A DNA stretch of 64,000 bases from an uncultured Gemmatimonadales bacterium (GTDB lineage Bacteria > Gemmatimonadota > Gemmatimonadetes > Gemmatimonadales > Gemmatimonadaceae): NCBI GenBank assembly GCA_963701965.1, contig OY969695.1:480001-544000 (forward strand), written 5' to 3'. Each line of letters opens with the position of its first letter. Position 1 is the first letter of the stretch. A model generated the notes under the pieces. That model was given only the letters and a program-made list of their open reading frames with translations, was not told where the DNA came from and made no database searches. A program made the translations under genes and the position numbers. Positions 1-18,600 of this stretch are shown here, piece after piece.

Positions 1-2
1 GT

Positions 3-1847
3 CGTTACTCCGGCATCCTGTCGCTTTCGCTGTACGGGATCTCGATCACCGCGATCGGGCTCCTCGACACGAAGCTCCCCGACGGGCAGTCCGGCTACTC
101 GTTCCTGATCATCATCAGCGCCACGTTCACGCCGATCCAACTCTCGTTCGGATTCACGCTGAACGGCGTCGGCGGGCTCTGTGGCGTCAATCGCTCGATG
201 ATCACCGATGCGATCCAGGCCGGCCTCAAGACCGGGTCGATCTCGGACATCCTGTTCCCGCCGGACCCTGTCGCCGACGCGCCGCAGATCATCTCGGAGC
301 TGAGCACGATCTTCCCGCCGGCGACCGGTCAGTACGTCTTCGGCCCGATCCTCGAGCTGGGCTGGGGCACGCCGTCACTGATCACCGCCAAGCTGGGCGT
401 GATCATCGAGCTGCCCAACCCGATCGTGATCGCGATTCTCGGCCAGTTGAGCATGGCGCTCCCCACCGAGGACGACGCGCTCGTCGAAATCCACGTCGAC
501 GTGCTCGGCGTCCTCGACGTCGCCAAGCAGCTCTTCGAGATCATCGCCGACATCTACGACTCGCGGATTGTCACGTTCACGATCTCGGGCGGCATGGCGC
601 TCATGCTCACCTGGGGCGATGACGCGAACTTCATTTTCTCGGTGGGCGGATTCAATCCGCACTACCAGCCGCCCGCGGGTTTTCCCTCCGTCGATCGCAT
701 CACGCTCGCCCTGGGCTCGGGCGACGATCTCCGCCTCACGCTCCAGGCGTACCTCGCGGTCACCAGCAATTCGTTCCAGATCGGCGCCAAGCTCGAGCTG
801 TACATGGGCTTGAGCTCGTTCAACATCGACGGCTGGCTCGGGTTCAATGCGCTGATCACGTACTCGCCATTCTCGTTTATCGTCGACTTCACGGCGGGAT
901 TGGCGCTGCGCAGCGGCACCAGCGTGCTGATGGGCATCTCCGTGAACGGCACGCTGTCGGGACCCACGCCGTGGCACGCCGAAGGCGAGGCGAGCATCTC
1001 GATCCTGTTCTTCTCGATCAGCGCCCACGTCAGCTTCACGATCGGGAATGCGCAGTCCAACCCGCTGCCGTCGATTAATGCCTGGACGCCACTGCAAGCG
1101 GCGATTCAACTCCCGGGCAACTGGACGGGCGCTCTCCCCGCTGACGTCCAACAGATCGCGACGCTATCGCCACCGGAGAAGAACGCCGCCCCCATTCTGA
1201 TCGACCCCAGCGGGACGCTCACCTTTCAGCAGAAGGTACTGCCGCTCGACCAACCGCTCGACACGGTCGGGAACGCGATCCCCGAGCAGCAGAGTGAGTT
1301 CGACCTCGCCGGTGTCACCCTGGGTGGGGCCTCCGTGCCGTATACCGTCATCGAGGGCGAGTTCGCGCCGGGTCAGTACCGCAACCTGTCCGACGGCGAC
1401 AAGCTCTCGCTCCCCTCGTTCGAGCCAATGGATGCGGGTTTCACCGTGGGCGGCGGGACGGTCGATTTCGGCAAGCAGTACGACGTCAACATCGTCTATG
1501 AGACGACCATCATCGATCGGACCCGCCCGATTCTCGCGCTCCCGTATCAAATCGCGCGCGATGACACGCTGGCCTGGGCGAAGGCCGGCGCCGCGGCCCA
1601 CGCGCCGCTCCGTACGACGGGCTTGGCCGCGTCCATGCCGGATCCTCGCGCGCCCAAGCTGGTCACGATGCCCGCCGAGCAGTACGTGATCGTCAGCACG
1701 GTCGATCTCACCCCGCGTCCGGACATCGCCGCCGCCGGCACCAAAGGCGACACCTTCGCCGCCCTGTCGGCGCACGTGGCCCGGAACCCGGCGGACCAAG
1801 GCACGCTGCAGGTCATCCCACTCTACGAGCTCGCGGAGGTCGCATGA
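3..1847 (+). CDS. DUF6603-like large beta-rich protein, 5'-truncated by window edge
   Basis: Frame is open from base 3 (RYSGILSLSLYGISITAIG...PIQLSFGFTLNGVGGLCGVNR). Motifs FSVGGFNPHY, YLAVTSNSFQIGAKLEL, F-N-ALI-PFSF and LSGPTPW resemble DUF6603 proteins. Many alternating-hydrophobic beta strands. Confidence 0.75.
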   Translation, partial: RYSGILSLSLYGISITAIGLLDTKLPDGQSGYSFLIIISATFTPIQLSFGFTLNGVGGLCGVNRSMITDAIQAGLKTGSISDILFPPDPVADAPQIISELSTIFPPATGQYVFGPILELGWGTPSLITAKLGVIIELPNPIVIAILGQLSMALPTEDDALVEIHVDVLGVLDVAKQLFEIIADIYDSRIVTFTISGGMALMLTWGDDANFIFSVGGFNPHYQPPAGFPSVDRITLALGSGDDLRLTLQAYLAVTSNSFQIGAKLELYMGLSSFNIDGWLGFNALITYSPFSFIVDFTAGLALRSGTSVLMGISVNGTLSGPTPWHAEGEASISILFFSISAHVSFTIGNAQSNPLPSINAWTPLQAAIQLPGNWTGALPADVQQIATLSPPEKNAAPILIDPSGTLTFQQKVLPLDQPLDTVGNAIPEQQSEFDLAGVTLGGASVPYTVIEGEFAPGQYRNLSDGDKLSLPSFEPMDAGFTVGGGTVDFGKQYDVNIVYETTIIDRTRPILALPYQIARDDTLAWAKAGAAAHAPLRTTGLAASMPDPRAPKLVTMPAEQYVIVSTVDLTPRPDIAAAGTKGDTFAALSAHVARNPADQGTLQVIPLYELAEVA

Positions 1848-4800
1848 GCAACGGCAACGGCAACGGCGACTCCGAACTGGGCTATCATACCTTTCTGCCG
1901 TGGCTGCGCCGCGGGATCGGCATCGAGATCAGTCGCACTGACGATGATCCCACGCCGGCGCCACGCGCTACGCTCGACATTGGCGTCACCATCGGCCCCG
2001 GCCCGCTGTCCACGGGGGCGACCAATGTCTCACTCGCCCTCTACGGCCCGGGCAATGTCGCCACGCTGGATCCCCGCACGGTGATCCGCACCTGGCCGCG
2101 CCCCAATGTCTATCAGTCGGAGCCCAACTACTTCCCGTTGATCGAGCTCCAACCGGCTGACGTGCCGTGGCGCTTCACGCCGGCCCGCCGCAGCGCGGCC
2201 GACCGGTTGCGACCGTGGATCGTGCTCATCGTACTCGCCGACGGCGAGTACGCCAGCGCCGCGGGGTCGATCACCGTCAACTCGGCGGCTACGCTCCCGG
2301 CGCTCGACCAATCCTGGGCCTGGAGCCACGTGCAGATCACGGGCGAGCAGTCGGTGGACGCGGCGACCGTGCTGGATCTCTTGGACAACGACCCCGATCG
2401 CATCCTGGCGCGCCTCCTGTGTCCGCGACAGCTCGCCCCCGATACGGCGTACACGGCGTTCCTCGTGCCGGCGCTCGAGCGCGCGCGCCTCGCCGGGTTG
2501 TCGCAGAACGTGCCCGACACGATCGACGGGCTCGCGCCCGCTTGGACGAGCGGCGAGAGCAACGTCCAACTGCCGGTGTACTATCAGTGGCGGTTCCAGA
2601 CGGGTGACGATGGCGATTTTGCGTCCCTCGTCGAGCGCGTCCAGCCCCGCCCCATGCCGGCGACCGTGGGATCGCGTCCGATGGACGTGAGTGCGGCGGG
2701 CTACATGCTGCCGCCCGCCGCGCCGGCGGCGCCGCTACAGGCGCTCAACGTCGAAGCCGCGCTCCGCGCCCTGGACAGCGCCAGCACGACGTGGGCCACC
2801 GGCGACCGCACGGCTTGGACGAACGCGCTCGCGACGTTGCTCGACACACCAGCCACGCTCCTGGCGTCGCCAGGGGCGGAGCGCGCCGTCGCTCCGCCCC
2901 TCTATGGCCAGTGGTACGCCGCCACCAACCAGCTTGGCGCCGCAGCGGATCCGACGCGCTGGTTTCCGGATCTCAACGCCGACCCCCGCCTCCGCGTGGC
3001 CGCCGGTCTCGGGACGGTCGCCATCCAGGAGAACCAGCAGCAATACCTCGCCGGCGCCTGGGCGCAGGTCGGCGCGATCCGGTCGATCAACGCCAGGCTC
3101 AAAGCCGCGCAACTGGCGCGCGAGACCGCGGTCAGCCTCTATCAGCGCCATCTCACTGTCCTGAGCGATTCGACGCTCATCGCGGTGACGGCTCCCGTCC
3201 ACCCGCGCATCCTCGCCAGCCCGACCACCGTCGCTGCCGTGCTGGCGAATAGTCCGCTGCGTGCCGGGCTGCTGCGTCCAGCCTGGCGTCGCCTCATGCG
3301 GCCCGGCGGCCAGCTCGGCCGGCGCATCGCGAACGCCGGCCGACTCGCCGGCCCCACCGTCGTCGAGCGCGTCAATCTGGGCGCGTTGCGCGTCGCGCCG
3401 CCGCCCACCACGCCGGCGCAACTCACGACGTTGACCACCGCGACGCAGCATACCGTGCCATCCTGGGCGACACCGGGTTGGATGGCGCTCCTGAGCGCGT
3501 TCAGCCATCTGAGTCTCATCGAGTTGATCGTCGCGCTCCTGCTGGCCGTGATCCTGTTTCTCGTGGGCGGGGGCGCGATCGCCATGGTGTTGGGGATCAT
3601 CGTGGTCGCTGGTCAGCTCCTGGGCAGCCAACTCATGGCGAGCGCGCCCATCGCCGATCTCCAGCGTCGCATGGCGCTCCACAACGGCACGCTGACATCC
3701 AGCCAGATCCAAGGGGCTCCGGCCCGCCCGGCGTTCGTTCCGCAGGAGTACAACGGCGCCGTGCCGACGCCGGCACCCGTCGCCGCGATCGGCGCGGCCG
3801 ACTCGGCGAGTGGCGCCCGGTTCCGCTCCGCTGCCGCCGCAATGTTCGCCGAGGTTCAGACGGCGCCGGCCGCCGGCCCGGTGCTCGTGACCGCCGATCT
3901 GGCATCGATCCGATCGAAGGTTGTGGCGGCGCTCGACCCCAAGCTCACGGTGGCCGTGAGCTATCTCCAGCGGTTGACGCTGGCCACCGGAATCGTGTGG
4001 CAACCGAAGGATCCGATCGAGCCGATCATGGCGGCGCCGAGCTTCCCCGATCCCATGTACAAGCCCCTGTTAGCGGTCTCGCAAGATTGGCTATTGCCGG
4101 GACTCGATCAGGTGCCGGCCGACACGATTTCGCTCGTGCAGACGAACGAGCCGTTCATCGAGGCGTACATGGTGGGCGTCAACCACGAGATGACGCGCAC
4201 GCTTCTCTTCAACGAATACCCGATCGATCAACGGGGCACGTATTTCCGGCAGTTCTGGGACTCGTCGACCGCGATCCCACCGGGACAGCCCGAGCCCGAG
4301 AGTCTCAAAGACCTTACGCCGATCAACACATGGGCCGCGGCATCGCTCCTCGGTACGCATTCGAGTCGGGCCACGCCGCCGGGCGGAAGCTATCTGGTGT
4401 TGCTGCTGCGCGCGGAGCTCCTGCGGCGCTACCCGAACACGATCGTGTACGCGAGCCATGCGAAGTGGAACCCGGACGGCTTCACGCGCTCCGTCGACGA
4501 CACCAACCAATCCAAACCACTGTTCTCGGGGACGCTCGGCGCCGGCGTGGGATTCTGGGGGTTTGCGCTCACGGCGGACCAGGTGCGCGGCGCCGACAAG
4601 CCGCCCGGCGATCCGGGGTGGTTCTTCATTCTCCAGGAAGCGCCCACGGAGCCGCGTCTCGGTCTCGAACCCGCTGGCACGACCTTCGGAGGGCCCGTCG
4701 CCAGCTGGCCGGGCATGGCGTGGAGTGATCTCGCGGCCAGCCCGGCGTCGCTCGCCAGCGTCCAGTTCATCGACCTCTCCGCGGCGCTACCCAATACCTC

Positions 4801-4942
4801 GACGGTGACCGATCCGGATCACGCCGTGTGGCACGCGGGCGACGGGGCGCGGGCGTCGGATATCGCCTACATCACGTATCGCGTGCCGATGCGCGTCGCG
4901 GTCCACGGCTCGACCATGATCCCACCCGACGTCGCGCCATGA
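1844..4942 (+). CDS. large conserved hypothetical protein (1032 aa), gene 2 of DUF6603 operon
   Basis: Long ORF with an ATGA overlap on the upstream stop and GGAGG RBS. Motifs EPNYFPLIE, PWRFTP, YYQWRFQTG-GDF-SLV, FIEAYMVG-NHE, DQRGTYFRQFWD and LLRRYPNT. Internal hydrophobic hairpin; no signal peptide. Confidence 0.85.
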   Translation: MSNGNGNGDSELGYHTFLPWLRRGIGIEISRTDDDPTPAPRATLDIGVTIGPGPLSTGATNVSLALYGPGNVATLDPRTVIRTWPRPNVYQSEPNYFPLIELQPADVPWRFTPARRSAADRLRPWIVLIVLADGEYASAAGSITVNSAATLPALDQSWAWSHVQITGEQSVDAATVLDLLDNDPDRILARLLCPRQLAPDTAYTAFLVPALERARLAGLSQNVPDTIDGLAPAWTSGESNVQLPVYYQWRFQTGDDGDFASLVERVQPRPMPATVGSRPMDVSAAGYMLPPAAPAAPLQALNVEAALRALDSASTTWATGDRTAWTNALATLLDTPATLLASPGAERAVAPPLYGQWYAATNQLGAAADPTRWFPDLNADPRLRVAAGLGTVAIQENQQQYLAGAWAQVGAIRSINARLKAAQLARETAVSLYQRHLTVLSDSTLIAVTAPVHPRILASPTTVAAVLANSPLRAGLLRPAWRRLMRPGGQLGRRIANAGRLAGPTVVERVNLGALRVAPPPTTPAQLTTLTTATQHTVPSWATPGWMALLSAFSHLSLIELIVALLLAVILFLVGGGAIAMVLGIIVVAGQLLGSQLMASAPIADLQRRMALHNGTLTSSQIQGAPARPAFVPQEYNGAVPTPAPVAAIGAADSASGARFRSAAAAMFAEVQTAPAAGPVLVTADLASIRSKVVAALDPKLTVAVSYLQRLTLATGIVWQPKDPIEPIMAAPSFPDPMYKPLLAVSQDWLLPGLDQVPADTISLVQTNEPFIEAYMVGVNHEMTRTLLFNEYPIDQRGTYFRQFWDSSTAIPPGQPEPESLKDLTPINTWAAASLLGTHSSRATPPGGSYLVLLLRAELLRRYPNTIVYASHAKWNPDGFTRSVDDTNQSKPLFSGTLGAGVGFWGFALTADQVRGADKPPGDPGWFFILQEAPTEPRLGLEPAGTTFGGPVASWPGMAWSDLAASPASLASVQFIDLSAALPNTSTVTDPDHAVWHAGDGARASDIAYITYRVPMRVAVHGSTMIPPDVAP

Positions 4943-7900
4943 GCCCTGTCGAGCTCTCCAACGTCCAGCAGGCGCGGACGGCGCACGCCAGCGCGCAGGC
5001 CGCGGTCGACGCGGCGCGCGCGCGCGTCACGGCGGCAGCCGCCGGCTCCGACGCCTATGCGCAGGCCACCCGGACGTTGGGCGCCGCCCAAGCGACGCTG
5101 GCCAGCGCGCGCAACACGCTCAATCAGACGATCGGTCAACAACTCTCGACGAACAACCCCCCGGGAGACGTCCAACGGCTGGACGCCGACCATCCGATCG
5201 TGTTGTTTCCCGTGCGCGTCGAGACGCGATTTTCATCGGCGCAGTCGGCGTTGCTCATTCGGGTGTATCCCGACGAGATCCTGGCGAACAGCTTCGAGCC
5301 AGAGTTGACCGCCGATGAGCTGGCGTGTGGCCAACTGTACTGGACCGAAGCCGCGGGCACGGTGGGACCGAACAATGCCTGGCGTCACCTGTTGGGGACC
5401 TACCCGTCGCCGCGTGCGGCGTGGATCGTGCTGCAGACGAATCCGGCGAACCCGGCGCCACCGCTTCGCGCGACGTCGTGGACGAAGCCCGCGGTGGCTC
5501 CGCTGTTGCCGGACCGCTGGATCGCGGTCGCGTATCGGGGAGGCGCCGAGATCGCCCGCGCGTGGAGCAGCCCGGTTCTCGAACCGCTGCCACTCACCAT
5601 CGCACCAGACACTCCGGCGGCGTCGTTGGTCGACATCTCCGGCGCCCTCAATTTGGGCGTCGACTATGACCCGGCGGTGCTCTGGACGGTCGACTACCCG
5701 ACCGCCGTCGCGGCCGGTATGGCGTTCGCCCTGCCGCTGCAATCGGCCGACTTCACCGCCGGGATCGACCGACTGCTGGTGCTCGGGGTCAAAACCACGA
5801 TCGCGCCCGCGGACGCCGCCACGGCGATCCGCTCCCTGATCGACGGTCATCACTATACGCGGGGGATCGCGTTCGTGCCGCAGGGCACGCCGACGCACGA
5901 TTCGCGCGAGGTGCCGTCGGGCTATCCGCCGCCGGACCCTAACGGGGCGATCAGCTTCGCCGTGGAAGAAGGACCGGGCTTGGCGACGCCCGACGGCGAT
6001 GGCGTCCTCTGGTCGCGCGCGCTTGGGCTGGCCGATGATACGGTCGCCCACATCGCCGGTGCCGACCGGACGGAGCAAGCGTCGGCCGCCGCGATGAACC
6101 GGGCGCTCTTCCCGGCGACGTGGGAGTACTTTCTGGAGACGATGATGGCGCCGATCGTGAGTGAAGGCACCATCGACGCCACGCGCGAGTACTTCGCGAA
6201 CCGGGTGCGTGCCCGGGGGCACTTTCCGAATTTTCGCATCGGGAACGTGCCGTATGGACTGCTTCCCGTGTCGTCACTCGCCCTATGGAAAGCGATACCG
6301 ACCCGACAACCGGGCGCATCGCCGATCACGAGCGTGTTGCCCGGGATCCTGCGCGCCGCGCAGCCGTTCTGGTCGGCGCAGATCGGCGCGGCCCCGCACT
6401 TGGGCCGGACGAACGACGGCGAAGGCGACGTGCTGGACGCCTTGAGTATGGACGCGAGTGCGCGCACGCTGCGTTTCCGACGGCTGTTGGGCGCCGAGAC
6501 GCTCGCCAACCTGGTGGGGCTGCTGGGCGTCGACTGGGCGCTGGTGACGCTCTTCGGCGATATGACCGCGGCGAACCTGCTGCGCAGCATGGGGTGGTCG
6601 GGCGCCAACCCCCGGGCGTTGACGAACGTGTTCGCGGCCAATGCGCTGCCATTTCGCTTTCCGTTCGTCGCCACGACGTTGTCGGAGACCGACCCGCTCG
6701 CGCCGAACTTCATCACGTGGGTGCGCACGGCGTCGATCGACGATCTGCGCGCCGGCGCGACGCCGTTCCCTGCCCCATCGGTGCTGCTGTTCCGGCTCCT
6801 GAGCTACGCCGCGCTCACCGAGTCTTGGCGAGAAGGCCGGCGCATTCTCCTCGCGGCGGGCGCGGCGGTGGACGATCTCGCGGTCCGCGAGTTGACCGGT
6901 ATCGTCGCGGGCACCGAGACGCGTCCCACCCCGTGGGATTATCTCGGGGCACCGGTGTCATCGGTCACGCACGCGTTGACGCTGGCGCATTTTCTGTCGC
7001 CGATTCAGCCGGGCGAGGCTACGCGGACGCTGCCGCCGGCGATCGTCGCCTATCGCGAGGCGCTGGGCGTGCTCGAGACACTCCCGACCGCCGAGCTGGA
7101 TCGCTTCTGCACGGAGACGTTGGATCTGGCGTCGAACCGCATCGATGCGTGGACCTCGGCGCTCTACGCCGAGCGCTTGGACACGATGCGCTCGACCACG
7201 CCGACGGGCAGTCATGTGGGCGCGTACGCGTGGGTCGAGTCGCTCAAGCCGGGCGGACAGCCGGCCATCCGGCTGAGCGACCGGCGTGCGGCGCTCGACT
7301 CGACCGGCGGATACATCCAAGCGCCGTCCATGGCGCACGCCGCCGCGGCCGCCGTGCTCCGCAACGCGTATCTCAGTTACGCGGGGGACAGCGGCGCGAA
7401 CCCTTACGCGGTCGACCTCTCGTCCGCCCGCGTGCGTGCCGCGCGGTTTGTGCTGGAAGCCGTCGCCGAGGGACAGCAAGTCGGCGCGGTGTTCGGCTAT
7501 CAGATCGAGAGCGGTCTCCATGCCCGTCTAGCGGATGCGCTCATCGACCCGCTGCGCAACGTGTATCCGCTCGTGGCCAACAAAGCCTTCGACTCCGGGG
7601 AGCAAGCCGAAGCGATCGCGGCGCGCAACGTCGTCGACGGACTGGCCTTGCGCACCGCCTGGAAAGCGAACGCGATCCCGTGGGGCACGGCAGGCCTTCC
7701 GGCCGCGGCGTCCGGCGCATTGTACGATGCCCTCATCGCCGAGCTGGGAGCGCTGGACACGACCGTCGACTCCGTCGCCAATGTCCTGCTGGCCGACTCC
7801 GTGTATCAGCTCGTGCAGGGTAGCACGGCGGGAGCATCGGCGAGCCTGGACACGATGGCGCAGGGCGCGCGCCCACCGGACCCCGGCGTTGTGCATCCCG

Positions 7901-9489
7901 TGACTGGCGGCGTCAATGTCACCCATCGCGTGGCGATCGTCATCGGCGACCCCGCCGTCGCCATCAGCACGGGTTGGCCGTCGACCGCCACGCCGCGCGC
8001 TGCCGCCGAGCCCCGGCTCGACGCGTGGGTGGGCAGTCTTCTGGGCGATCCGGGCAACGTGCGCTGCATCGTGCGGGTGACCGACAACTCCGGCGCCTCG
8101 CCGGTCGTGACCGACCACACGGTGACGATGGACCAACTCGGCTTGCGGCCGATCGACATGCTGGCGCTGGCCGCATCGGTCACGGATCAACCCGCGGCGT
8201 CGGAGTTGGACCGGCGGTGCATCACCGCGGCGCTCGGCGACACGCCGGTGAGCGGGACGATCTCCGTCATCTATGCCCGTGATCCGGGCTGGGATCGCGA
8301 CACCGTCCGCGCGGTGCCCGAGCTCCTGCAGGCGGCGCAAGCGCTGCTCCGACTCATCGGTGGCGCGCGGACCATGGCGTGGCAGGATCTCGTGCGCGCG
8401 GCGGACGTCTCGACGACGACGCTGGGAGTCTTGGCGGTCGCGGATGCGGAAGCGCGCGCGACCGCCGCCGAGGCCGGGTTGGCGGCGATCAAGACCCAGT
8501 TGGACGCTGCCGTAGCGCCCGGCGCCACGCGCGCGGCGCTCGTAGCGGCGCTGCGTGCGACGGCGGCGTACGGCGTCACCGGCGCGTACCCCGTACCGGG
8601 CGCGGGCGCGAACGAAGGGGACGTGGCGACGACGCTGATCGACCAGGCGCAGCGGACGCAGGCCGCGGTCAATGCGCGCATTGCCGCGGCCACAGCGGCG
8701 CATCTTCCCCCGACGCCGCCCCCGACGGATGCCGCGCGCGTGGCCGCGGCGGTGGAGATCGCACAGCAGATCTTCGGGCAGGGATTTGTGTTGGTGACGG
8801 GGTTTGCCCCGTCGCCTGCTGCGACGGTGGGGTCGGCGTTGGCGGCGGGGCCGGCATTGGTGGGCGACCCACACGCGCCGATCAAGTGGCTGCAGCAGGC
8901 GAGCCGGGTGCGAACGGCACTTGGCCGTTGGCGCCGCGTCCGATTGCTCACCGAGGCGATGGGTGCGCCGCCCGTCGCGTTGGACATCGCGCAGTTCCCC
9001 GTGGTCGCCGGCGCGCCGCCGCCGCACTGGGTGGGCTTGCCCTTCGCGTCCGAAGCCGATCGCGTGAGCGGACGCCTGTCGGTGGCGCTGGCGCGGCCCT
9101 CGACGCCGGCGGCGACCGCCACGTGGTACGGGCTCACCATCGATGAGTGGGTGGAGCTCATCCCGAACGCGACGGAGATGACCGGTCTCGCGTTCCACTA
9201 CGACGTCGCGAAAGCCGAAGCGCCGCACGCCGTGTTGGTCGCCGTACCACCGGCGTCCGTGGAGCAGTGGGATTTCAATACGCTGGCCACGATCGTCGGC
9301 GAGACGCTGGATCTGGCCAAGATGCGGGGGGTGGACGGCCGTCTTCTCGGTAGCCTGTCACAGCTCATTCCCGCGATCTACTTCACCGCCAACGCCAATG
9401 ACGACACGGTGACGTTCCCATGGCGGGGAACGCTCCGCGCCGAGACGACGATCACGGCGGCGACGATCGCCGCGGGAGCCACCGGGTGA
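4939..9489 (+). CDS. very large conserved hypothetical protein (~1516 aa), gene 3 of DUF6603 operon
   Basis: ATG at 4939 overlaps the upstream TGA. Ala-rich N-terminal helix. Motifs PIVLFPVRVETRF, LLIRVYPD, LPDRW, RIG-PYGLLPV, ETLDL-RIDAW, GGYIQAPS, EPRLDAW and IDEWVELIP...GLAFHYD. Confidence 0.85.
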   Translation: MSPVELSNVQQARTAHASAQAAVDAARARVTAAAAGSDAYAQATRTLGAAQATLASARNTLNQTIGQQLSTNNPPGDVQRLDADHPIVLFPVRVETRFSSAQSALLIRVYPDEILANSFEPELTADELACGQLYWTEAAGTVGPNNAWRHLLGTYPSPRAAWIVLQTNPANPAPPLRATSWTKPAVAPLLPDRWIAVAYRGGAEIARAWSSPVLEPLPLTIAPDTPAASLVDISGALNLGVDYDPAVLWTVDYPTAVAAGMAFALPLQSADFTAGIDRLLVLGVKTTIAPADAATAIRSLIDGHHYTRGIAFVPQGTPTHDSREVPSGYPPPDPNGAISFAVEEGPGLATPDGDGVLWSRALGLADDTVAHIAGADRTEQASAAAMNRALFPATWEYFLETMMAPIVSEGTIDATREYFANRVRARGHFPNFRIGNVPYGLLPVSSLALWKAIPTRQPGASPITSVLPGILRAAQPFWSAQIGAAPHLGRTNDGEGDVLDALSMDASARTLRFRRLLGAETLANLVGLLGVDWALVTLFGDMTAANLLRSMGWSGANPRALTNVFAANALPFRFPFVATTLSETDPLAPNFITWVRTASIDDLRAGATPFPAPSVLLFRLLSYAALTESWREGRRILLAAGAAVDDLAVRELTGIVAGTETRPTPWDYLGAPVSSVTHALTLAHFLSPIQPGEATRTLPPAIVAYREALGVLETLPTAELDRFCTETLDLASNRIDAWTSALYAERLDTMRSTTPTGSHVGAYAWVESLKPGGQPAIRLSDRRAALDSTGGYIQAPSMAHAAAAAVLRNAYLSYAGDSGANPYAVDLSSARVRAARFVLEAVAEGQQVGAVFGYQIESGLHARLADALIDPLRNVYPLVANKAFDSGEQAEAIAARNVVDGLALRTAWKANAIPWGTAGLPAAASGALYDALIAELGALDTTVDSVANVLLADSVYQLVQGSTAGASASLDTMAQGARPPDPGVVHPVTGGVNVTHRVAIVIGDPAVAISTGWPSTATPRAAAEPRLDAWVGSLLGDPGNVRCIVRVTDNSGASPVVTDHTVTMDQLGLRPIDMLALAASVTDQPAASELDRRCITAALGDTPVSGTISVIYARDPGWDRDTVRAVPELLQAAQALLRLIGGARTMAWQDLVRAADVSTTTLGVLAVADAEARATAAEAGLAAIKTQLDAAVAPGATRAALVAALRATAAYGVTGAYPVPGAGANEGDVATTLIDQAQRTQAAVNARIAAATAAHLPPTPPPTDAARVAAAVEIAQQIFGQGFVLVTGFAPSPAATVGSALAAGPALVGDPHAPIKWLQQASRVRTALGRWRRVRLLTEAMGAPPVALDIAQFPVVAGAPPPHWVGLPFASEADRVSGRLSVALARPSTPAATATWYGLTIDEWVELIPNATEMTGLAFHYDVAKAEAPHAVLVAVPPASVEQWDFNTLATIVGETLDLAKMRGVDGRLLGSLSQLIPAIYFTANANDDTVTFPWRGTLRAETTITAATIAAGATG

Positions 9490-11216
9490 CCCTCTCCGTG
9501 CGAGCCGGCCCCACGTTCGTGTTGCGTCCGCCATCGATCACCTATTGGGTGCGCGGAGAGCCCGATGCCCGCGGCGAGACATTTGTCGATGCGATGTGCG
9601 CGCGGCTCCGCGATCCGCTGTGGACGCTGACGCGGCAGTGGCAGCTTGGCGAGTTCCTGGGAGGCGACGCCGGTTCGCCAGCCTTCGTGGAAATGGCGGA
9701 GCGTTTCGGCGCGCTGACCGCGTGGCAGGCCACGGGACAGGCGGTGGAGCCGCTGGGCGGCGGGCCGCTCGAGTACGAGAGCGAGCGCGAGCCATTGGAC
9801 GCGGATCTGGCGACGGCGATCGAGCTCGGGCAGACCGCCGAGCGGTTGCTCACCGAGCGCGGGGTGGCCGCGCTCATTCCGGCATTTCGGACAGCGTATT
9901 CGGTGAGCGCGACACCCGTCGACGCCAGCGACCCGTCCGACGTCACGTTTCGCAGTGTGTGCGCGTCGCGCGCGATCAATGGGGTGGCGTTGGCCGCGGC
10001 GGCCCAAGCGGCGCAGCCCGCTCTGCCGGCGACGCCGGCGATCCCGACGGCGGACCAACCGCAGGCGCTGGCCGCGATCAACGACTTTCTGGCCTGGGTC
10101 GCGGCGACCGTCGGGACGCTGGGCACTAGCGATCCCGGTGCGTGGCAACCGGCGACGCTCGGGTACGGGTTGGGGATCACGGGAACCGCGCCCGACGGCA
10201 GCGCGATCACTCTGCAAGCCAGCCCGGCCGACGATGGGCTGCTGGAGTGGTCGGCGCTGGACCTCACGCCTCCAACGGCGCCTGGATCCGCCGCGGCGAA
10301 GGCGCGGGGCGTGATGCCGGCCCACCTGCGATTCCCGGGCATGCCGAACGCCCGCTTCTGGGATTTCGAGACGTCGGGGTCGGATATTGGGTCGGTCGTG
10401 CCCGACAAGCGCGATCTGGCGCGGCTGGCGGTGATGGATCTCATGCTGGTGCACGGGAACGACTGGTTCGTGATCCCGGTCTCGCTGGCGCCCGGCGCGC
10501 TATACGAGGTCACGCAGCTCTTGGTGCACGATGTCTTTGGCGTGATCACGCGGGTCACGCGTGCGGATCAAGAGGCGATCTCGGCGGGCGCGTGGGCGGC
10601 GTTCACCACCAACATCGTTGGCCAGACCGCGCGCGCGCCGTTTTTCGTCTTTCCGCCGAGCGTTGGGGTGGCGATGCAGCGCGGGGCGCCGGTGGAGGAG
10701 GTGCAGTTCGCGCGCGACGAGCAGGCGAACATGGTGTGGGCGCTGGAGCTCGCGACCCAGAACGCGATCGGCGAGGGGTGGTCGGGTCACGAGCGCGATA
10801 TCGCGCGGAACGGCGGGGCGGCACCGCGGCCGCCCGCGCCCCAAGCGGCCGCGATCCCGCTCGTGTACGACATCCAGACTCGTGTTCCGGAGTACTGGAT
10901 TCCGTTTCTGCCGGCGCGAGTCAATGCGGTGACCGGCGCCGCGGCCCTCGAACGCGCCGCGATGCTGCGGGCCGATGGGACGCCGATTGAACCTGTGGGA
11001 CGCATCCTCCGGCCGTCGAGCATCACCGCCGGGTCGCCGTACCGCGTGCCGGAGGAGGAGGTCGCGCGCACCGGCGTCCGCATCGTGCGGTCGGTGTGTC
11101 GGAGCCGCTGGGTCGACGGCACGACCTGGCTGTGGGGCATGCGGCAGAGCGGCCCGTCGCGCGGCGAGGCGAACAGCGCGCTCCGGTTCGACGTCGCTCA
11201 GCCGAACAGCTCGTGA
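9486..11216 (+). CDS. conserved hypothetical protein (~576 aa), gene 4 of DUF6603 operon
   Basis: GTG at 9486 overlaps the upstream TGA. Motifs RDPLW-L-RQWQLGEF-G-DAGSP, FPGMPN-RFWDFE, GNDWFVIP, EEV-F-RDE-ANMVW, VPEYWIPF and EEEV-RTG...RW-DG...LRFD. Confidence 0.85.
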   Translation: MTLSVRAGPTFVLRPPSITYWVRGEPDARGETFVDAMCARLRDPLWTLTRQWQLGEFLGGDAGSPAFVEMAERFGALTAWQATGQAVEPLGGGPLEYESEREPLDADLATAIELGQTAERLLTERGVAALIPAFRTAYSVSATPVDASDPSDVTFRSVCASRAINGVALAAAAQAAQPALPATPAIPTADQPQALAAINDFLAWVAATVGTLGTSDPGAWQPATLGYGLGITGTAPDGSAITLQASPADDGLLEWSALDLTPPTAPGSAAAKARGVMPAHLRFPGMPNARFWDFETSGSDIGSVVPDKRDLARLAVMDLMLVHGNDWFVIPVSLAPGALYEVTQLLVHDVFGVITRVTRADQEAISAGAWAAFTTNIVGQTARAPFFVFPPSVGVAMQRGAPVEEVQFARDEQANMVWALELATQNAIGEGWSGHERDIARNGGAAPRPPAPQAAAIPLVYDIQTRVPEYWIPFLPARVNAVTGAAALERAAMLRADGTPIEPVGRILRPSSITAGSPYRVPEEEVARTGVRIVRSVCRSRWVDGTTWLWGMRQSGPSRGEANSALRFDVAQPNSS

Positions 11217-12265
11217 CGCCTGGCGGCCGTTGGGGAACCCGCGTTGGCCTGGCGTGGGCGGTCGCGGCGTCCGCGGCGGGAGCTCAGGCGCCGCCCTCGC
11301 CCGGCCTCGACACGGGCGCGCTCCGGGCCGCGGACGACCCGACGCATACGATGCGGGCGGTGCTGGTCCAGCGGCACGGCCGGCTGGTCGCCGAGCAGTA
11401 CTTCAACGGCGAGACGGCGGACTCCCTGCACGACATCCGCTCGGCCACCAAGACGATCACGTCGATGCTGATCGGGATCGCGATCGACCAAGGGCGCATC
11501 GCGAGCGTGCATAGCCGTCTCGCGACGCTCCTGTCGGTCCCGCAGGGTTGGCAGCCCGTGACGCTGGCCAATGTCTTGTCGATGAGCTCGGGGCTCGATG
11601 CGGACGATAACACCGCCGACTCGCCCGGCAACGAAAATCGCATGGACGGGCACGGCGATTGGCTGGCGTTCGCCCGGACGATTCCATTGGCGCGTCCGCC
11701 CGGCACCCGTTGGGCTTACGCCTCGCTCAACTACATGCTGCTCGGCGCCATACTTACCGAGGCCACGCACCAACCAGTCCCAGCATTCGCCCAGGCGTCG
11801 CTCTTCGATCCGCTGGGCATCCGCGACGTGCGCTGGACGGCCGATGCAGCCGGTCACACGTCGACGCAGGGCAACTTCCGCATCCGCGCCCGCGACCTGG
11901 TCGCGCTCGGACAGCTCGCGCTCGATCACGGCGTCTGGCACGGCCGCCGCGTGATCTCACGCGCGTGGTTGGACTCGGCCACCGTCCCCCGATTCCCCAC
12001 ACCGTTCGCGGGGTACGACGGGTACGGCTATGGGTGGTGGACCAACACGATGCCCGTCGCCGACCGCCGGATCTTCTACTACTTCATGTCGGGCAACGGC
12101 GGCCAGAAGGTCTACGTGGTGCCGTCCTTGGATCTGGTCGTCGTCGTGACGAGCGCCGGCTACAATCAGCGCTCGGCGCAGGACCGCTCGGAGCGGATCC
12201 TTCGCGACTATTCTGGGTGCGGTGCGCTAGGGATCGACTTACGCTGCTACGTCTACGTAGGCTGA
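11213..12265 (+). CDS. serine hydrolase, beta-lactamase/AmpC-like family
   Basis: SxxK (IRSATKT), WAY-S-N-LLG, YGYGWW and GNGGQ-VYVVP-LDLVVV. GTGA coupling to the upstream gene; signal-like N-terminus. Confidence 0.85.
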   Translation: MTPGGRWGTRVGLAWAVAASAAGAQAPPSPGLDTGALRAADDPTHTMRAVLVQRHGRLVAEQYFNGETADSLHDIRSATKTITSMLIGIAIDQGRIASVHSRLATLLSVPQGWQPVTLANVLSMSSGLDADDNTADSPGNENRMDGHGDWLAFARTIPLARPPGTRWAYASLNYMLLGAILTEATHQPVPAFAQASLFDPLGIRDVRWTADAAGHTSTQGNFRIRARDLVALGQLALDHGVWHGRRVISRAWLDSATVPRFPTPFAGYDGYGYGWWTNTMPVADRRIFYYFMSGNGGQKVYVVPSLDLVVVVTSAGYNQRSAQDRSERILRDYSGCGALGIDLRCYVYVG

Positions 12266-12454
12266 CGTCGAGACCGGACGCGGGATCGGCTGTCCGGCTT
12301 CCTGCAGTCCCTCGATGTGGAATGAAATGGCGTCACGCATGCTCTGCTCCACCTCGGCGCGATTGTGTCCCGTCGCAATGCAACCCGGCAGGTCGGGCGA
12401 ATACGCCGAGTAACCCGTTGGGGTTTCCTCGATCACAATCAGGTAGCGGCTCAT
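12239..12454 (-). CDS. hicB: type II TA antitoxin, HicB family
   Basis: MSRYLIVIEETPTGYSAYSPDLPGCIATG...EGL-E-G-PIP matches the short HicB signature. Confidence 0.9.
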   Translation of the reverse strand: MSRYLIVIEETPTGYSAYSPDLPGCIATGHNRAEVEQSMRDAISFHIEGLQEAGQPIPRPVSTSAYVDVAA

Positions 12455-12456
12455 AG

Positions 12457-12590
12457 TCACAGGCTTGCCTGCCTCAGCACGCTGTTCAACGCCCCGAGCT
12501 AGATGATCGTCTTCGCGGCCAGCGACTGTTATCGCTCCCGATCTCGTTAGGGGCTTGACCTGCCGGTGACAGTCGCGCGTGCGAGCGGCC
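12457..12590 (-). pseudogene. hicA: degenerate HicA toxin remnant
   Basis: CHRQVK-TRSGAITVAG-DDHLARG in one frame, then LNSVLRQASL* in a shifted frame ending 2 nt before the hicB ATG. No N-terminus. Confidence 0.7.
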
Positions 12591-12596
12591 GTGCTC

Positions 12597-12794
12597 TTAG
12601 GCGGCCCGAAAGTCCATCTTCCTGGCGTCAGTGACGCGACGGGAGGCGTCGAGGATTTCCAGACTGACCAGGTTGCCCGCCTCGTCATAGTCCAGAATGA
12701 TCCCGGGCTTGTCCTCGTCGCTCTCAGCGATCGGCCGACCCTCTTGCAAGAGTACCGATAATGTGTCGGTCCGTGAGTCGTAGGTCACTTTCAT
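12597..12794 (-). CDS. DUF2283 domain protein (putative antitoxin)
   Basis: MKVTYD-TD-L...ESDE-PGIILDYDE-GNLV-LEILDAS. Confidence 0.85.
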   Translation of the reverse strand: MKVTYDSRTDTLSVLLQEGRPIAESDEDKPGIILDYDEAGNLVSLEILDASRRVTDARKMDFRAA

Positions 12795-13048
12795 GTGCCC
12801 CCCTTCCAGTATTTCGCGATCTTGCTGCTACGGTATACCGTAACGACTTCCGCGGGTTGGCGCAGAACATCGACGAACACCCGAACGATATATCGACTCG
12901 GCGGGTCGCCGAAGTCAACCAGAGACTGGAGGACATCCCTGCCCGGCCGATGCGGGTGTCGCTCTCCGGGATCGCGAAGTACATCGCCAACCGTGTCGGC
13001 CGAAATCCCTCGTTGTGCCATCTCCTCCACAGCGTGCGGAGTAAGCAA
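12791..13048 (-). CDS. DUF4258 domain protein (putative RelE-like toxin)
   Basis: LTPHAVEEMAQRGIS...RVFVD...VVTVY-SSKIAKYW; 4-nt overlap with DUF2283. The true start may be ~13074 with a frameshift. Confidence 0.8.
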   Translation of the reverse strand: MLTPHAVEEMAQRGISADTVGDVLRDPGERHPHRPGRDVLQSLVDFGDPPSRYIVRVFVDVLRQPAEVVTVYRSSKIAKYWKGGT

Positions 13049-13265
13049 TACGACACGATCGGCTCGCCGGACACACAGCCAATTTACGTGGCCGTAGTGT
13101 GCCCGCCACGTGCGATTGCAACCGTCAGCTCGTTGGCCCTAGCGTAGCGAATTCTCGCGCGACACTGGCCAACACGGACAGACACGAACGTCCCGCGACC
13201 CGACGGCTATCGATCCCACCCAGGAGCGCCGGCCGACGTCGGCGTACCATCTCGCTCACAACCAA

Positions 13266-13352
13266 CGGAGGGGGCGGGATTCGAACCCGCGAGACCCTTG
13301 CGAGCCCACACGCTTTCCAGGCGTGCGCCTTAAACCACTCGGCCACCCCTCC
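13266..13352 (-). tRNA. tRNA-Ser (anticodon GGA)
   Basis: GGAGGGGTGGCCGAGTGGTTTAAGGCGCACGCCT-GGA-AAGCGTG, long variable arm, GGTTCGAATCC. CCA not encoded. Confidence 0.97.
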
Positions 13353-13385
13353 CTGGGACACGCGCAGGAGCGCGTGGACCGACAA

Positions 13386-13475
13386 CGGATGGGGTGAGAT
13401 TCGAACTCACGATACCGGGTTCACCGGTATGCCGGTTTTCGAGACCGGTGCCTTCAACCACTCGGCCACCCATCC
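13386..13475 (-). tRNA. tRNA-Ser (anticodon CGA)
   Basis: GGATGGGTGGCCGAGTGGTTGAAGGCACCGGTCT-CGA-AAACCGG, long variable arm, GTTCGAATC. CCA not encoded. Confidence 0.97.
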
Positions 13476-13526
13476 AAGTACTACGGAGCGCGAAACTTAG
13501 ACGATTCAGCCCCTGCCCCACAACCC
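13449..13526. repeat. direct repeat copy 1 (tRNA-Ser 5' end + upstream promoter), att-like
   Basis: 78 bp, 3 mismatches to 20692-20769 by manual alignment. Confidence 0.9.
13494..13523 (-). promoter_or_regulatory. putative sigma70 promoter of the tRNA-Ser pair
   Basis: TTGTGG-N18-TAAGTT followed by a GC-rich discriminator, ~18 nt upstream of the mature tRNA. Confidence 0.4.
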
Positions 13527-13765
13527 AGCGTGGGGATCGCTGGTCGCGCTCCCTCTTTAATTTACGAGATGACGGATCTCGCTTCACACCCAGGTCACTT
13601 AGGATGGACCTCCCGCGGGGCCATCCTGCTTCATGCTAACTGGCCGATCTATCCCGCCGAGCACGGGCCGGAGACGGCACTATTGACTCTCGGTCGTGCG
13701 CCTGAGCGAGGTATTCGCTTGGGTTGATTCGATGGTACCGAAGTCGTAAGATCAACCCGTTTCTT

Positions 13766-14224
13766 CTAAGGCGACATAGGCCAGGGCGGCACGAACTCGA
13801 ACGGTACGATGCGACGTAGCCGCCGGAAATCACTCTCGTTCTCGGTGACGACCGTCACACCGGCCTCTCGGCAAGAGAGTGCGATCATGATGTCGTTCAC
13901 GGTGTGCTTCGGAACACGACGGAGTTCAAGACCATCTTCGGCCACCAATGTGGCGAGCACTCGGCCAGAGTCTCGCCACACGGCAAAACTGGGCGTGATC
14001 ATTCGACCGCGTCGTTGAAACGGTTCGACGACAGTGCGATCAAATTGCTTCACGCCACCGGCGCTGCTGAGTCCCGCGCGTAACTCTTGAACGACTACCG
14101 CGCTGAGAAACTCGTACGGCGCGAAAACCGCGTGAAAATGCTTCAGCTGCTCAGCGCCCGCACGATCGCGATACCCGCGAATGAACAGGTTCGTGTCAAG
14201 CGCGTACTTCGTTGGAACTGACAA
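13766..14224 (-). CDS. vapC: PIN-domain toxin (VapC family)
   Basis: YALDTN, SAVVVQEL-AG, NDIMIA, VVTEN-SDF acidic PIN residues. Confidence 0.9.
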   Translation of the reverse strand: MSVPTKYALDTNLFIRGYRDRAGAEQLKHFHAVFAPYEFLSAVVVQELRAGLSSAGGVKQFDRTVVEPFQRRGRMITPSFAVWRDSGRVLATLVAEDGLELRRVPKHTVNDIMIALSCREAGVTVVTENESDFRRLRRIVPFEFVPPWPMSP

Positions 14225-14235
14225 CCGCGCAAATC

Positions 14236-14454
14236 CTAACGGTCAAACGCTGCGATCGGAGTGCCGACAAGCGCATCCACACCATCAACCAGTTCCTTAC
14301 GAAACAGAACCAAGTCGAGAGCAGTTTCGATGGCTTCGGTTTCCGTACTAGCGCCGAGAGCTTCGCGAGCGGCATCGAGGCGCGCCTGATCGAGCCGGAA
14401 ATTTTTTCGAACCGACTTGGGGCGCTTGGATTTGGGACGTCGGGTAGTAGGCAT
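14236..14454 (-). CDS. VapB-like antitoxin
   Basis: 72 aa, RKNFRLDQARLDAAREALGASTETEAIETAL (RHH-like); directly upstream of the PIN gene. Confidence 0.75.
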   Translation of the reverse strand: MPTTRRPKSKRPKSVRKNFRLDQARLDAAREALGASTETEAIETALDLVLFRKELVDGVDALVGTPIAAFDR

Positions 14455-14471
14455 CAGATTCCGTTGTCGTA

Positions 14472-14498
14472 TGTACAAATCAATGTATCGTCTGTACA
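14472..14498. promoter_or_regulatory. putative TA operator: two TGTACA palindromes 21 bp apart
   Basis: TGTACA at 14472 and 14493 in an AT-rich stretch just upstream of the antitoxin ATG. Confidence 0.45.
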
Positions 14499-14604
14499 AG
14501 AAGCGAGCAAGATGGCTATGGGCACATTTCTGGGCACATTTCGCTGCCGACGGGCGGCACCAGACGCAAAGCGGCGCTGACGATCAGCTGCGTCAGCGCC
14601 GCAA

Positions 14605-15678: not shown

Positions 15679-18600
15679 TCACTCGGCGCGCATCGCCGAC
15701 ATCGGGTCCACGGCTGCCGCCCGCAACGACGGCAGCAGTGTGGCCAGGAGTCCCATCGCGACGAGCGCCAGCGTTGCGACCAGCCAGGTTGGCGTGTCGA
15801 GTGGACTGAGCCCGTAGAGGTTCGCCGAGAGCACGCGGGTCACGAGCGCACTGCCAACCAGCCCGAAGGCTACCCCCACCAGAATCAGGCGGAACCCGCC
15901 ATTCACGACCAAGCCGACCGTGCGGGCCGGTGTGCTCCCGAGCGCCGTTCTGATGCCCAGCTCGCGGGTGCGTTGCGCCACGACGTAGCTCAGCACGCCG
16001 TGCAATCCCGCGACGACCAACACGACCGCGATGCCGGCGAAGAGTGTGATCGACACCAGGAAAAATCGCTGGCGGCGCACACTGTCGAGAATGACGTCCT
16101 TCATCGGCATGACCCGCGTCACAGCGGCCTGGGGATCGATCGAGTGCACGGCGGCCGCGACGCTACGGTTCACGCTCAGCGGATCCCCACGCACGCGGAC
16201 CATGATGTTATAGACCGAGGAGGAGGTGTACGGAGTATAGAACTCCGGCCGCGGCTCCATGAGAGGTCCCATGTTGCGGATCGTGCTCACGACTCCGACG
16301 ATGGTCGCCAGTGAGGTGTCGTTCGCGTACCATCGCTTGCCGATCGGGTCCTCGTTGGGGAAGTCGCGCTTCACCAGCGCTTTGTTGACGACGACTACCT
16401 TCGGTGCTCCCTCCTGCACGTCCGCCTCCTGCAGCAAGCGTCCCTCGAGGAGACGCTGTTGGGTGACGGCGAAGAATCCGGGGGTGACGTCGCGCACTTC
16501 GACGACTGGGAGGCGCGTAGGGACCTCCTTTGGCCGGTTTTCGTACTGCGCACCCGTATTCATGCCCCAGCGTCGAAATGGGATCTCGGAGATGGCGCCG
16601 ACCGCGACCACGCCCGGCACGCGGCCGATCGCATTGATCGTTGGGTTCAGAAACCGTTGCACCGATGTGCCCGGTGCGTACGCGACGGGCGAGATCGCGG
16701 TCTCCATGGTCAGCACGTGAGTCGGATCGAACCCCGGGTCACGATCGAGCAGCCGCGTGAACGCCTTTATGACGAGCCCGGCAGCGATCACGAGAATGAG
16801 TGAGAGCGCGACCTCGACGACGACGAGCGTGCCGAACGCGCGCCGAGCGCTCTGGCGCACCCCGCCGCCGCGTCCGCCGCGCAGCACGTCCTGCGGATCG
16901 ACTCGTGTCCCACGCCAAGCCGGCAGCGCTCCAGCCACGACGGCCACGAGGCCAGAGAGCACGAGCGCGAAGGGGATCGCCCGGACGCCGACAAAGACAT
17001 TGGAGAGTTGTGGCAGATCCTCGGACAGGTGCACGCCGGTCGCGCGGATGCCGATCCACGCGAGGAGCACGCCGCACGTCACGCCCGCGATCGCCAGTGC
17101 GAGGCTTTCGACGAGAACCGGACGCACGACATCCCACCGGGAGGCGCCGAGTGCGGTGCGGATCGCGTACTCCTGCTGGCGATGGACGCCGCGCGCGAGG
17201 AGCAGGCAAGCGACGTTGCTCGTCGCCACGAGAAGAACCAATGAGACGGCGCCGAAGAGGAGCATCAGGGGTCCGCGGACGTGGGCGATATCGTCGGCCT
17301 GCATCGGCACGGCGCGCACCGATTCCAGCCGGAAGTCCGGGTAGATTTTGGCGATGTCGGCGAAGCGCTGAGCCAATTCGCGATCGGCATCACTGGCGGA
17401 GGTCCCCGGTGCGAGCCGGCCGAACGCGCACAGGAAGTCCGACCCGCGCGTATTGAGCTCCCTCGGTGTGAACACCAGCGGGATCCAGACATCGGCTTCG
17501 AGACGGCGGTCACCGTGGGGCAGCCGAAATGCCGGCGGGAGCACGCCGATCACGGTCCGGGAGCGGCCATCCAATTGGATCGAGCGTCCGATGAGCGTCG
17601 TGTCGCCTCCAAACCGTGTCTGCCACAGTTCGTGGCTCAGGACGACGACGGGCGCATCGGTCGCGGCGTCGGCGCTGTCGAGTAGCCGGCCATGGGATGC
17701 CGACACGCCCAACGCGGAGAACGTGTTGCCGCTCGCTCGCATGAGATTGAGACGCTCGGCGGCATCCGGCAGCGTCACCAGTCCCGATGTCTGATACACC
17801 GCCGCGAGATCACGCAGTGTGTGGACCGAGCGCCCGAGATCCACGAAGTTGGGTGCCGATATGGGGCTGGTATCGAACTTCAACGCTTTGCGATAGACGG
17901 TGACCAATTCGCGCGCGTGGGCGAACGGGAGCGGTTGGATCAGCGCCCGGTCGATGGCGCTGTAGACCGCGGTCATCGCGCCGGTGCCGAGCGCGAGGCA
18001 GATGAGCGCGTAGACGGTGACGCTCGGGCTGCGGATAAGACCGCGCAGGCCGCCACGGACGTCGGCGGCGGTGACGAACGTGCGCGGTGTGCTCAGCGCC
18101 TCGGGATCTTGAAGCACGCGCATGACATCGACCGCTGAGCGGGGACGCTGACTGGGCTCTTTGGCGAGGCACTGGAGCAGAATGCGCTCCACGCCGGGCG
18201 GTACGTCGGACCGTCGCTTGGCGATCGGCTGCGGCGCTTCGGTGAGGTGCGCCGCCATGAGCTTTCGGACCGTCGGTCCCGTGAACGGCGGGGTGCCGAC
18301 CAGCATCTCGTATCCCACGACACCGAGCGCGTATAGGTCCGTTCGCGCGTCGACATCGCTGTCGCCGGCGATCTGCTCCGGCGCCATGTACACCGGCGTG
18401 CCAATGGACGTGCCTTCGCTGGTCATCGGCGCCCGCGTCCGCGATTTCGCGATACCGAAATCGGAGAGGACGGCGGAGTGCGCCGTGAGCAGAATGTTGT
18501 CGGGCTTGATGTCGCGATGGACGACGCCGTTTTGGTGGGCGAACGCCAGGGCGCGCGCGATGTCGATCAGGATGCTCGCGGTCTCGCGGACCGACATCGG

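Follow-up and report, generated by a model that had tools for sequence, protein, structure and literature searches.

What do four giant genes of an uncultured Gemmatimonadales bacterium, set end to end and for the most part unmatched to known families, build together, and where would their product act? The genes, here called g1 to g4, open a 64,000-nucleotide stretch of contig OY969695.1 from assembly GCA_963701965.1 (G000:C1:480001-544000, within one 5.1-Mb contig); "the window" below means that whole stretch. A first-pass annotation of these letters had described a coupled operon of a DUF6603 system and proposed a multi-subunit membrane-targeting machine. Overall, sequence comparison supports well that the four genes are one co-inherited unit, a 13-kb cassette of four subunits. 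The main clue to its function is the enzyme gene that occupies a slot directly in front of g1, the DUF6603 gene, and the reading we prefer, which we regard as plausible rather than probable, is that of a signal-less particle that would deliver the slot hydrolase to cell surfaces.

A co-inherited cassette in bacteria and haloarchaea

The open reading frame (ORF) calls place the four genes in a row, joined by 4-nt overlaps (ATGA, ATGA and GTGA) as first described, with GC content at third codon positions of 0.85–0.89 and one copy of each gene in this genome. The DUF6603 identity first given to g1 is borne out by Pfam (PF20248, 442 bits against a cut-off of 27, E 3e-132), and the four motifs quoted at the time are all present and conserved in homolog alignments. 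Recovery of the upstream contig, a check that the annotation had suggested, placed the operon start ~3.2 kb before the window and yielded a 95-amino-acid (aa) ORF, an M14 zinc carboxypeptidase gene and the missing 5′ half of g1, whose start at genome position 478,415 lies 12 bases past the M14 stop codon (Table 1). No sigma-70 promoter-like site was found in window positions 1-12500, and the terminator-like sites there (9 versus 3.9 expected) all fall within ORFs. In the closest relative, a Gemmatimonadales assembly with about 80% identity, a small ORF and M14 pair of the same type stands before g1 and a second pair behind g4; the DNA flanking the cassette is not alike between the two genomes.

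Gene order was evaluated at 52 loci around g4 relatives, two of which look like one data set filed twice. The order DUF6603-g2-g3-g4, whose conservation had been put forward as a check on the operon, was kept in all 24 loci with ≥8.9 kb of upstream DNA. All 30 loci that could be tested for g2 contain it, and 41 of 44 contain g3, which was missed where <1 kb of upstream DNA was present. At loci found via DUF6603 or g2, the block order was sometimes permuted, with g3-g4 before DUF6603 (L096, L129, L135). The cassette is patchy and mobile, and occurs in Gemmatimonadota, myxobacteria, Actinomycetota and haloarchaea. Counting in each case the genome on which the search was centred, we detected g4 in 5 of 301 genomes of its own phylum, DUF6603 above cut-off in 20 of 251 genomes of one myxobacterial class (against 0 of 14 control genomes), and g2 in 7 of 401 Actinomycetota and 20 of 151 genomes of one actinomycete order. 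Thirteen of 72,556 plasmids carry the cassette, four of them haloarchaeal and some with it near integrases; culturable carriers exist among them, with plasmids of Gemmatirosa, Streptomyces, Nocardia and haloarchaea. RefSeq names for cassette neighbours are mostly "hypothetical protein".

Hints of a physical association come from g3 and g4. Profile comparison linked a helical domain of g3 to the helical insert of g4 (hhalign 90.9%, E 1.2e-6; reversed control 0.3%), the g4 profile independently picked the same g3 stretch, and no other pair among the core proteins was linked. In one actinomycete (L117), g3 and g4 are fused in frame into a 2101-aa protein, with ~25 residues between the two matches. 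Their distances also correlate (rho 0.85 over 101 pairs, shuffled maximum 0.18), a value inflated by kin and some duplicates. The fusion and the shared domain argue for one complex; of the multi-subunit machine first proposed, the co-inherited unit thus stands on gene order, shared domain and fusion, and the complex itself is what we infer from them.

An enzyme slot in front of DUF6603

Neither the enzyme gene, which lies outside the window, nor the hydrophobic hairpin of g2 described below appeared in the first-pass annotation; also new here are the domain shared by g3 and g4 and their fusion, the variability of the g2 tip, surface-binding add-on domains and enzyme clades specific to the cassette. 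In this genome the slot product matches PF00246 at 107.8 bits (E 1e-30) and retains H72, E75, H265 and E397, which we take to be the zinc ligands (HxxE and His) and the catalytic Glu. The 95-aa ORF has no Pfam match and is presumably the separately encoded pro-domain of this M14 enzyme. Among 300 further genomes of the phylum, none had a close relative of the enzyme (the best match elsewhere scored 83 bits).

We then defined a slot gene as a same-strand gene ≤200 bases before DUF6603 and surveyed 67 DUF6603 genes with upstream DNA, 58 of which have g2 next. Among these 58 cassettes, 43 have a slot gene, and 30 of the 43 are enzymes or cluster with enzymes: 12 PhoD-like proteins or PhoD/peptidoglycan-binding fusions, 9 M64-like proteins, 2 S8, 2 PLD and 2 trypsin-like proteins, along with one M14, one galactose-oxidase-like protein and one esterase. 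The rest comprise three genes of one unnamed family, two split DUF6603 pieces and eight genes without family assignment. Many PhoD-like and M64-like Pfam scores lie under the curated cut-offs, yet the HExxH and PhoD metal motifs are retained. Profiles of six M64-like and six PhoD-like proteins, from genomes outside the search's hit list, were run against 151 genomes: all three M64-like matches and five of the six strong PhoD-like matches (≥450 bits, next 100) stand in front of a cassette. Since the matches sit almost all before cassettes, the slot enzymes appear to be dedicated clades and not chance neighbours.

Enzymes of these families are normally exported. In a crude signal-peptide screen, 5 of 30 slot enzymes were weakly flagged as hydrophobic versus 3 of 4 secreted controls, and none of the 30 had a motif of the twin-arginine translocation (Tat) type. 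In the same kind of screen, no core family had more than 4 weak flags, and the N-termini of 77 g4 ORFs were neither Tat-type nor hydrophobic.

Two groups of slot genes fall outside these enzymes. Two haloarchaeal ones (L071:9315-12068, L073:10152-12358) have hydrophobic C-terminal helices and no Pfam match, and by motif they appear to resemble pore-forming effectors. The unnamed family, of 380-440 aa and likewise without a Pfam match, occupies the slot in three myxobacterial cassettes (L087:7306-8616, L090:11605-12753, L092:11419-12699).

Predicted architecture of the four proteins

Sequence features suggest that DUF6603 forms an extended beta-meander, hydrophobic on one side. The g1 product is predicted to have an N-terminal amphipathic helical bundle, a long beta-meander and a C-terminal region, and covariation across only 198 sequences, with strands assigned by the author, suggests some 28 strands that follow one another in an unbroken antiparallel meander: 24 of the 30 top ladders span ≤40 residues, i.e., neighbouring antiparallel hairpins, and a helical excursion (aa 594-636 of the closest relative's intact copy) packs onto the sheet. 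Alternating windows reach 5.8 per 100 aa, versus 3.8 in TamB and 1.6–2.0 in g2-g4, and the hydrophobic face is aliphatic, with 2.5–3.5% charged residues and few W/Y, an asymmetry that is not diagnostic by itself because strands of g2 have it too. This architecture makes the beta-groove conduit of the first-pass annotation plausible, but no profile link to TamB was detected (hhalign 0.6%, reversed control 0.7%, with TamB of one phylum), and hhalign detected no internal repeat in DUF6603. A PDB profile search with the N-terminus returned mostly designed helical bundles.

The family counts 10,160 representatives at E ≤0.001 and 4,245 at E ≤1e-30, ranges from about 740 to 2775 aa, and includes some homologs with a Kelch propeller. 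Short members (740-790 aa; L072, L116, L137, L138, L139) have a reduced N-terminal part and mostly no coupled enzyme gene, which hints that this part docks the enzyme. The longest (2775 aa; L120:3674-11998, minus strand) has no enzyme gene in front; its N-terminal extension appears by eye to be more beta-meander with an alpha/beta-hydrolase-like insert, without a Pfam match. In this assembly the g1 reading frame shifts near codon 180. The copy of the closest relative is unbroken at 1143 aa, although that assembly has a comparable frame break in g2. The single DNA run covers 8 of 30 bins, with the g1 site outside them, so that a real break and an assembly error look the same in these data.

The AlphaFold2 model of g2 (predicted local distance difference test (pLDDT) 90, predicted template modelling score (pTM) 0.74) has conserved N- and C-terminal alpha/beta domains around a long helical middle with a variable tip, i.e., a predicted head, helical stalk and tip. 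The two end domains show no mutual homology by hhalign. A hydrophobic hairpin forms the tip in this copy, and 72 of its 119 close homologs share it. In a set of 76 diverse full-length homologs, 43 tips are short, 20 medium, 8 hydrophobic and 5 longer than 450 residues, four of the last bearing FG-GAP/propeller repeats; membrane targeting, first proposed as a property of the system, would thus belong to one tip type among several. The long FG-GAP tips pair with PhoD-like slot proteins of 1450-1650 aa (L068:7326-11885, L122, L124, L125), three of four with a fused peptidoglycan-binding domain and a lysozyme-looking region, and g2 tip and slot cargo may be matched to each other.

In the g4 model (pLDDT 84, pTM 0.78), a helical insert is set into a beta-rich body. 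Confidence in the monomer is low for the conserved N-terminal motif (aa 17-62) and for aa 286-330, as would be expected if both fold on a partner. The helical domain common to g3 and g4 is weakly SAM-like in the structure comparison tool VIA (best Z 5.0 over g4 aa 113-207, root-mean-square deviation 2.5 over 63 aligned residues), a score within that tool's noise, although SAM domains make up many of the top rows for g4; Pfam gave no SAM match on g3 or g4. Among the matches listed, 5 of 120 g3 homologs bear PG_binding_1 or FG-GAP/DUF346 add-ons and 4 of 120 g4 homologs a C-terminal Hcp domain, one of the latter inside a full cassette (L034), and some g4 homologs have lamin-tail and (weak) Ig-like domains. 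The Hcp domain, of the type VI secretion system (T6SS) tube type (L034:10001-12160; P0094, P0103, P0105, P0117), raises the possibility of six-membered g4 rings.

Searches against known families and systems

The family searches first suggested for each protein left g2-g4 without a match in Pfam (E ≤0.1) and in NCBIfam, PHROGs and PADLOC (E ≤0.01), PADLOC returning 0 families for 6 proteins. Foldseek gave no match at E ≤0.001 for the g4 model in PDB or BFVD and none for the g2 model in PDB, and the best VIA score for g2 (Z 5.3) came from generic helices, with CopC-like Ig rows at Z 4.4 (aa 77-263). Because these searches used whole chains, neither a new fold nor the lack of a known one follows from them. 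An adenovirus penton/hexon-like capsid was considered and dropped, as the fold searches of both models gave it no support. PDB sequence-profile searches returned nothing for g3, nothing significant for g4 and a single weak 98-residue match for g2 (E 0.008); the ESM Atlas held unnamed clusters only for g3 and no usable named match for a g2 homolog. No g4 relative was found in IMG/VR, and g2 had one match among 50,697 phage records, a homolog (H14, MT835531.1:36271-39231) on an unannotated 40-kb record filed as phage, possibly a bacterial contig.

Large signal-less subunits with cargo genes at the locus edge are also known from toxin complexes (Tc), extracellular contractile injection systems (eCIS) and tailocins, and T6SS. 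The cassette resembles these in both respects, and in one clade through the g4-Hcp fusion, but the Tc-like pore of the first-pass annotation found no sequence support: TcA, TcB (SpvB) and RHS/YD-repeat TcC domains were absent in Pfam, NCBIfam and PDB sequence-profile searches, and the core had no sheath, tube, baseplate or VgrG family match in Pfam or PHROGs. The best functional analogy is with the umbrella particles of Streptomyces (UmbA/B/C), which combine a coiled-coil stalk with exchangeable lectin tips of the beta-propeller type and a varying cargo; UmbC has a Tat signal and ALF repeats, and a toxin is fused to its C-terminus (PMC11062931). The proposed particle is alike in its large multi-protein build, stalk and swappable propeller tips (FG-GAP/DUF346 in g2 and g3, in homologs and not in this copy), and unlike in having no Tat motif, no ALF match and a separate hydrolase gene as cargo.

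For DUF6603 itself, a family that also includes copies with other partners, the closest parallel lies in the repeating beta-groove (RBG) lipid bridges VPS13 and ATG2 and the bacterial AsmA and TamB (PMC7613979). Shared are an antiparallel meander, one aliphatic face, excursions, amphipathic helices at one end and variable length, with excursions after 6–8 strands by the author's strand assignment versus 5 in RBG bridges; the lacking TamB profile link, the missing N-terminal membrane anchor, three unrelated partners and the occurrence in monoderms and archaea set it apart. A looser parallel is offered by orfX-p47 clusters, in which a conserved accessory set reportedly accompanies interchangeable cargo genes; these differ in lying beside known toxins and in TULIP-type members (PMC7020563), and cassette proteins had no sequence match to them in PDB profile searches.

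How the cassette may work

Under the reading we prefer, the four proteins would come together in the cytoplasm as a large scaffold that takes up the product of the slot gene (here the M14 carboxypeptidase). This scaffold would bring the enzyme, which needs no signal peptide for the purpose, to a cell surface, and there the enzyme would break down envelope proteins, lipids or wall polymers. g3 and g4 would make up the particle body and g2 an arm whose tip chooses the surface, a hydrophobic one dipping into the membrane here and carbohydrate-binding propellers serving elsewhere, while DUF6603 would be a greasy groove that holds lipid and docks the enzyme; release would be by lysis or another route. 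We place the action outside the cell because wall-binding and propeller domains and the slot enzyme families act on surfaces. For this genome's copy, the hydrophobic hairpin tip and a carboxypeptidase cargo with a likely pro-domain suggest a particle that would be anchored in a membrane, trimming peptides at that site. More doubtful is the bolder version, a new class of signal-peptide-free delivery particle in bacteria and archaea, with a lipoprotein-like body, a lipid-filled DUF6603 groove, a g3/g4 lattice built through the shared helical domain and dedicated hydrolases aimed at other cells' envelopes by swappable arms.

Several observations weigh against delivery to surfaces. The way out is its weakest step, since no export, holin or endolysin gene recurs near annotated loci. 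The enzyme is optional, given that 15 of the 58 cassette DUF6603 genes have no coupled gene in front (three of them caller or frame-break artefacts), and by eye the slot enzymes have no common terminal targeting motif or cargo-loading peptide. The sixth strong PhoD-like match is an orphan split in two pieces, its 36-kb stretch being free of a cassette, DUF6603 also occurs with different partners (L074-L076, L086), and the copy studied here lacks propeller, fibre and wall-binding add-ons and may be damaged, should its g1 frame break be real. The myxobacterial genes L074-L076 and L086, each followed by unrelated uncharacterised genes of 540-850 aa, appear as a second type of DUF6603 system.

Alternatively, the cassette might act within the cell as a lipid machine, in which a DUF6603 groove held by g2-g4 bridges the inner membrane and another lipid phase and the enzyme remodels the carried lipid. 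The covariation-based run of antiparallel hairpins with a helical excursion on the sheet, the density of alternating windows, a hydrophobic face low in charge and W/Y, N-terminal amphipathic helices, variable length, PLD and PhoD-like enzymes in the slot and the g2 hairpin of close homologs would all fit, yet we consider this unlikely: the missing TamB similarity and repeat signal tell against it, face asymmetry alone is undiagnostic, slot peptidases are no rarer than lipid enzymes, wall-binding and propeller add-ons hardly suit the cytoplasm, and the hairpin occurs in just 8 of the 76 diverse g2 homologs. We think it rather improbable that the scaffold is a Tc- or umbrella-like injector that binds a competitor and moves cargo across its membrane. 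A g2 stalk with hydrophobic hairpin, lectin-like and wall-binding domains, patchy mobile spread with integrases close by, the two pore-former-like haloarchaeal slot genes and Hcp on some g4 homologs speak for such an injector, but most g2 tips are non-hydrophobic, the core lacks Tc, RHS and ALF domains in Pfam, none of the 43 slot genes matches a nuclease, deaminase or ADP-ribosyltransferase family in Pfam, and no immunity gene separates the enzyme from DUF6603, which it abuts.

An encapsulin-like compartment of new fold, in which g3 and g4 polymerise into a shell that sequesters the hydrolase in the cell until needed, seems to us no better a prospect than the injector. In encapsulin operons an enzyme gene precedes the shell gene, without signal peptides, as it does here; SAM domains polymerise, which would suit the weakly SAM-like domain of g3 and g4, and the conserved g4 segments left unfolded in the monomer model would fit as well. 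Against this, a Z of 5 sits inside the tool's stated noise, Pfam and PHROGs gave no encapsulin or capsid family match, no common cargo-loading peptide was seen, and four distinct giant subunits with outward surface-binding add-ons are ill-suited to a storage shell. Anti-phage defence, or four proteins without a single complex, appears very unlikely: the cassette is mobile and patchy (5/301, 7/401 and 20/151 genomes) and in this genome has tRNAs and toxin-antitoxin genes close by, as defence would suggest, but it has no PADLOC match, Pfam finds no NTPase, nuclease or sensor domain in the core, tRNA adjacency is rare among related stretches, and the g3-g4 fusion and shared domain speak for one complex.

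The cassette is very likely a machine that nobody has looked at: this 13-kb unit stays intact in haloarchaea and in three or more phyla of bacteria, it has enzyme clades of its own, and a search that left subscription journals and bioRxiv supplements outside found no paper on DUF6603/PF20248 or a described cassette, nor a function or structure for DUF6603. The unit is solid and widespread; its mechanism is a proposal, and the copy in this genome may be damaged. If folded enzymes do leave cells without Sec or Tat, aimed by exchangeable tips, this would be a new export and targeting route, of relevance to microbial competition and nutrient capture and as a modular enzyme carrier.

Coordinates and genomic neighbourhood

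Table 1 Features of the cassette (window positions, or genome positions where marked G000:C1).
Feature	Position	Strand	Description	Basis
95-aa ORF upstream of the window	G000:C1:476779-477066		likely separate pro-domain
M14 zinc carboxypeptidase	G000:C1:477059-478402		447 aa, occupies the swappable enzyme slot	Pfam PF00246
g1, whole gene	G000:C1:478415-481847		about 1143 aa; frame break near genome position 478,955
g1, DUF6603 3′ part	1..1847 (ORF 3..1847, 5′-open)	+	last 614 codons	Pfam, ORF
g2	1844..4942	+	1032 aa	ORF, AlphaFold2
g2 hydrophobic helical hairpin	3482..3628	+	aa 547-595 (aa 558-598 in the AlphaFold2 model), tip of this copy
g3	4939..9489	+	1516 aa, largest subunit	ORF, homolog alignments
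g3 helical domain	7357..7776	+	aa 807-946, homologous to g4 aa 90-208	hhalign
g4	9486..11216	+	576 aa	ORF, AlphaFold2
g4 helical insert	9753..10109	+	aa 90-208, common with g3	hhalign, AlphaFold2

The first-pass annotation had also placed the operon beside a tRNA and toxin-antitoxin hotspot. Two tRNA-Ser genes and HicB- and PIN-type genes do lie 1–3 kb downstream of g4, but of 56 related stretches only 3 (L003, L007, L148) have a tRNA in the first 3 kb or so after the cassette, four further stretches having tRNA calls inside genes or far from the cassette, so that this setting is local and not a property of the system. Specifically, HicB-like, DUF4258 and PIN-domain genes and a small partner flank the two tRNA-Ser genes at window positions 12239-14499, and cassette relatives are without such a link. 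Directly after g4, a beta-lactamase-family (serine hydrolase) gene (11096-12265, plus strand) is probably outside the cassette, being absent behind g4 in the closest relative. Farther along, the minus strand at 15679-18903 encodes a 1074-aa fusion of a Ser/Thr kinase with an ADOP-family duplicated ABC permease (TIGR03434 above cut-off).

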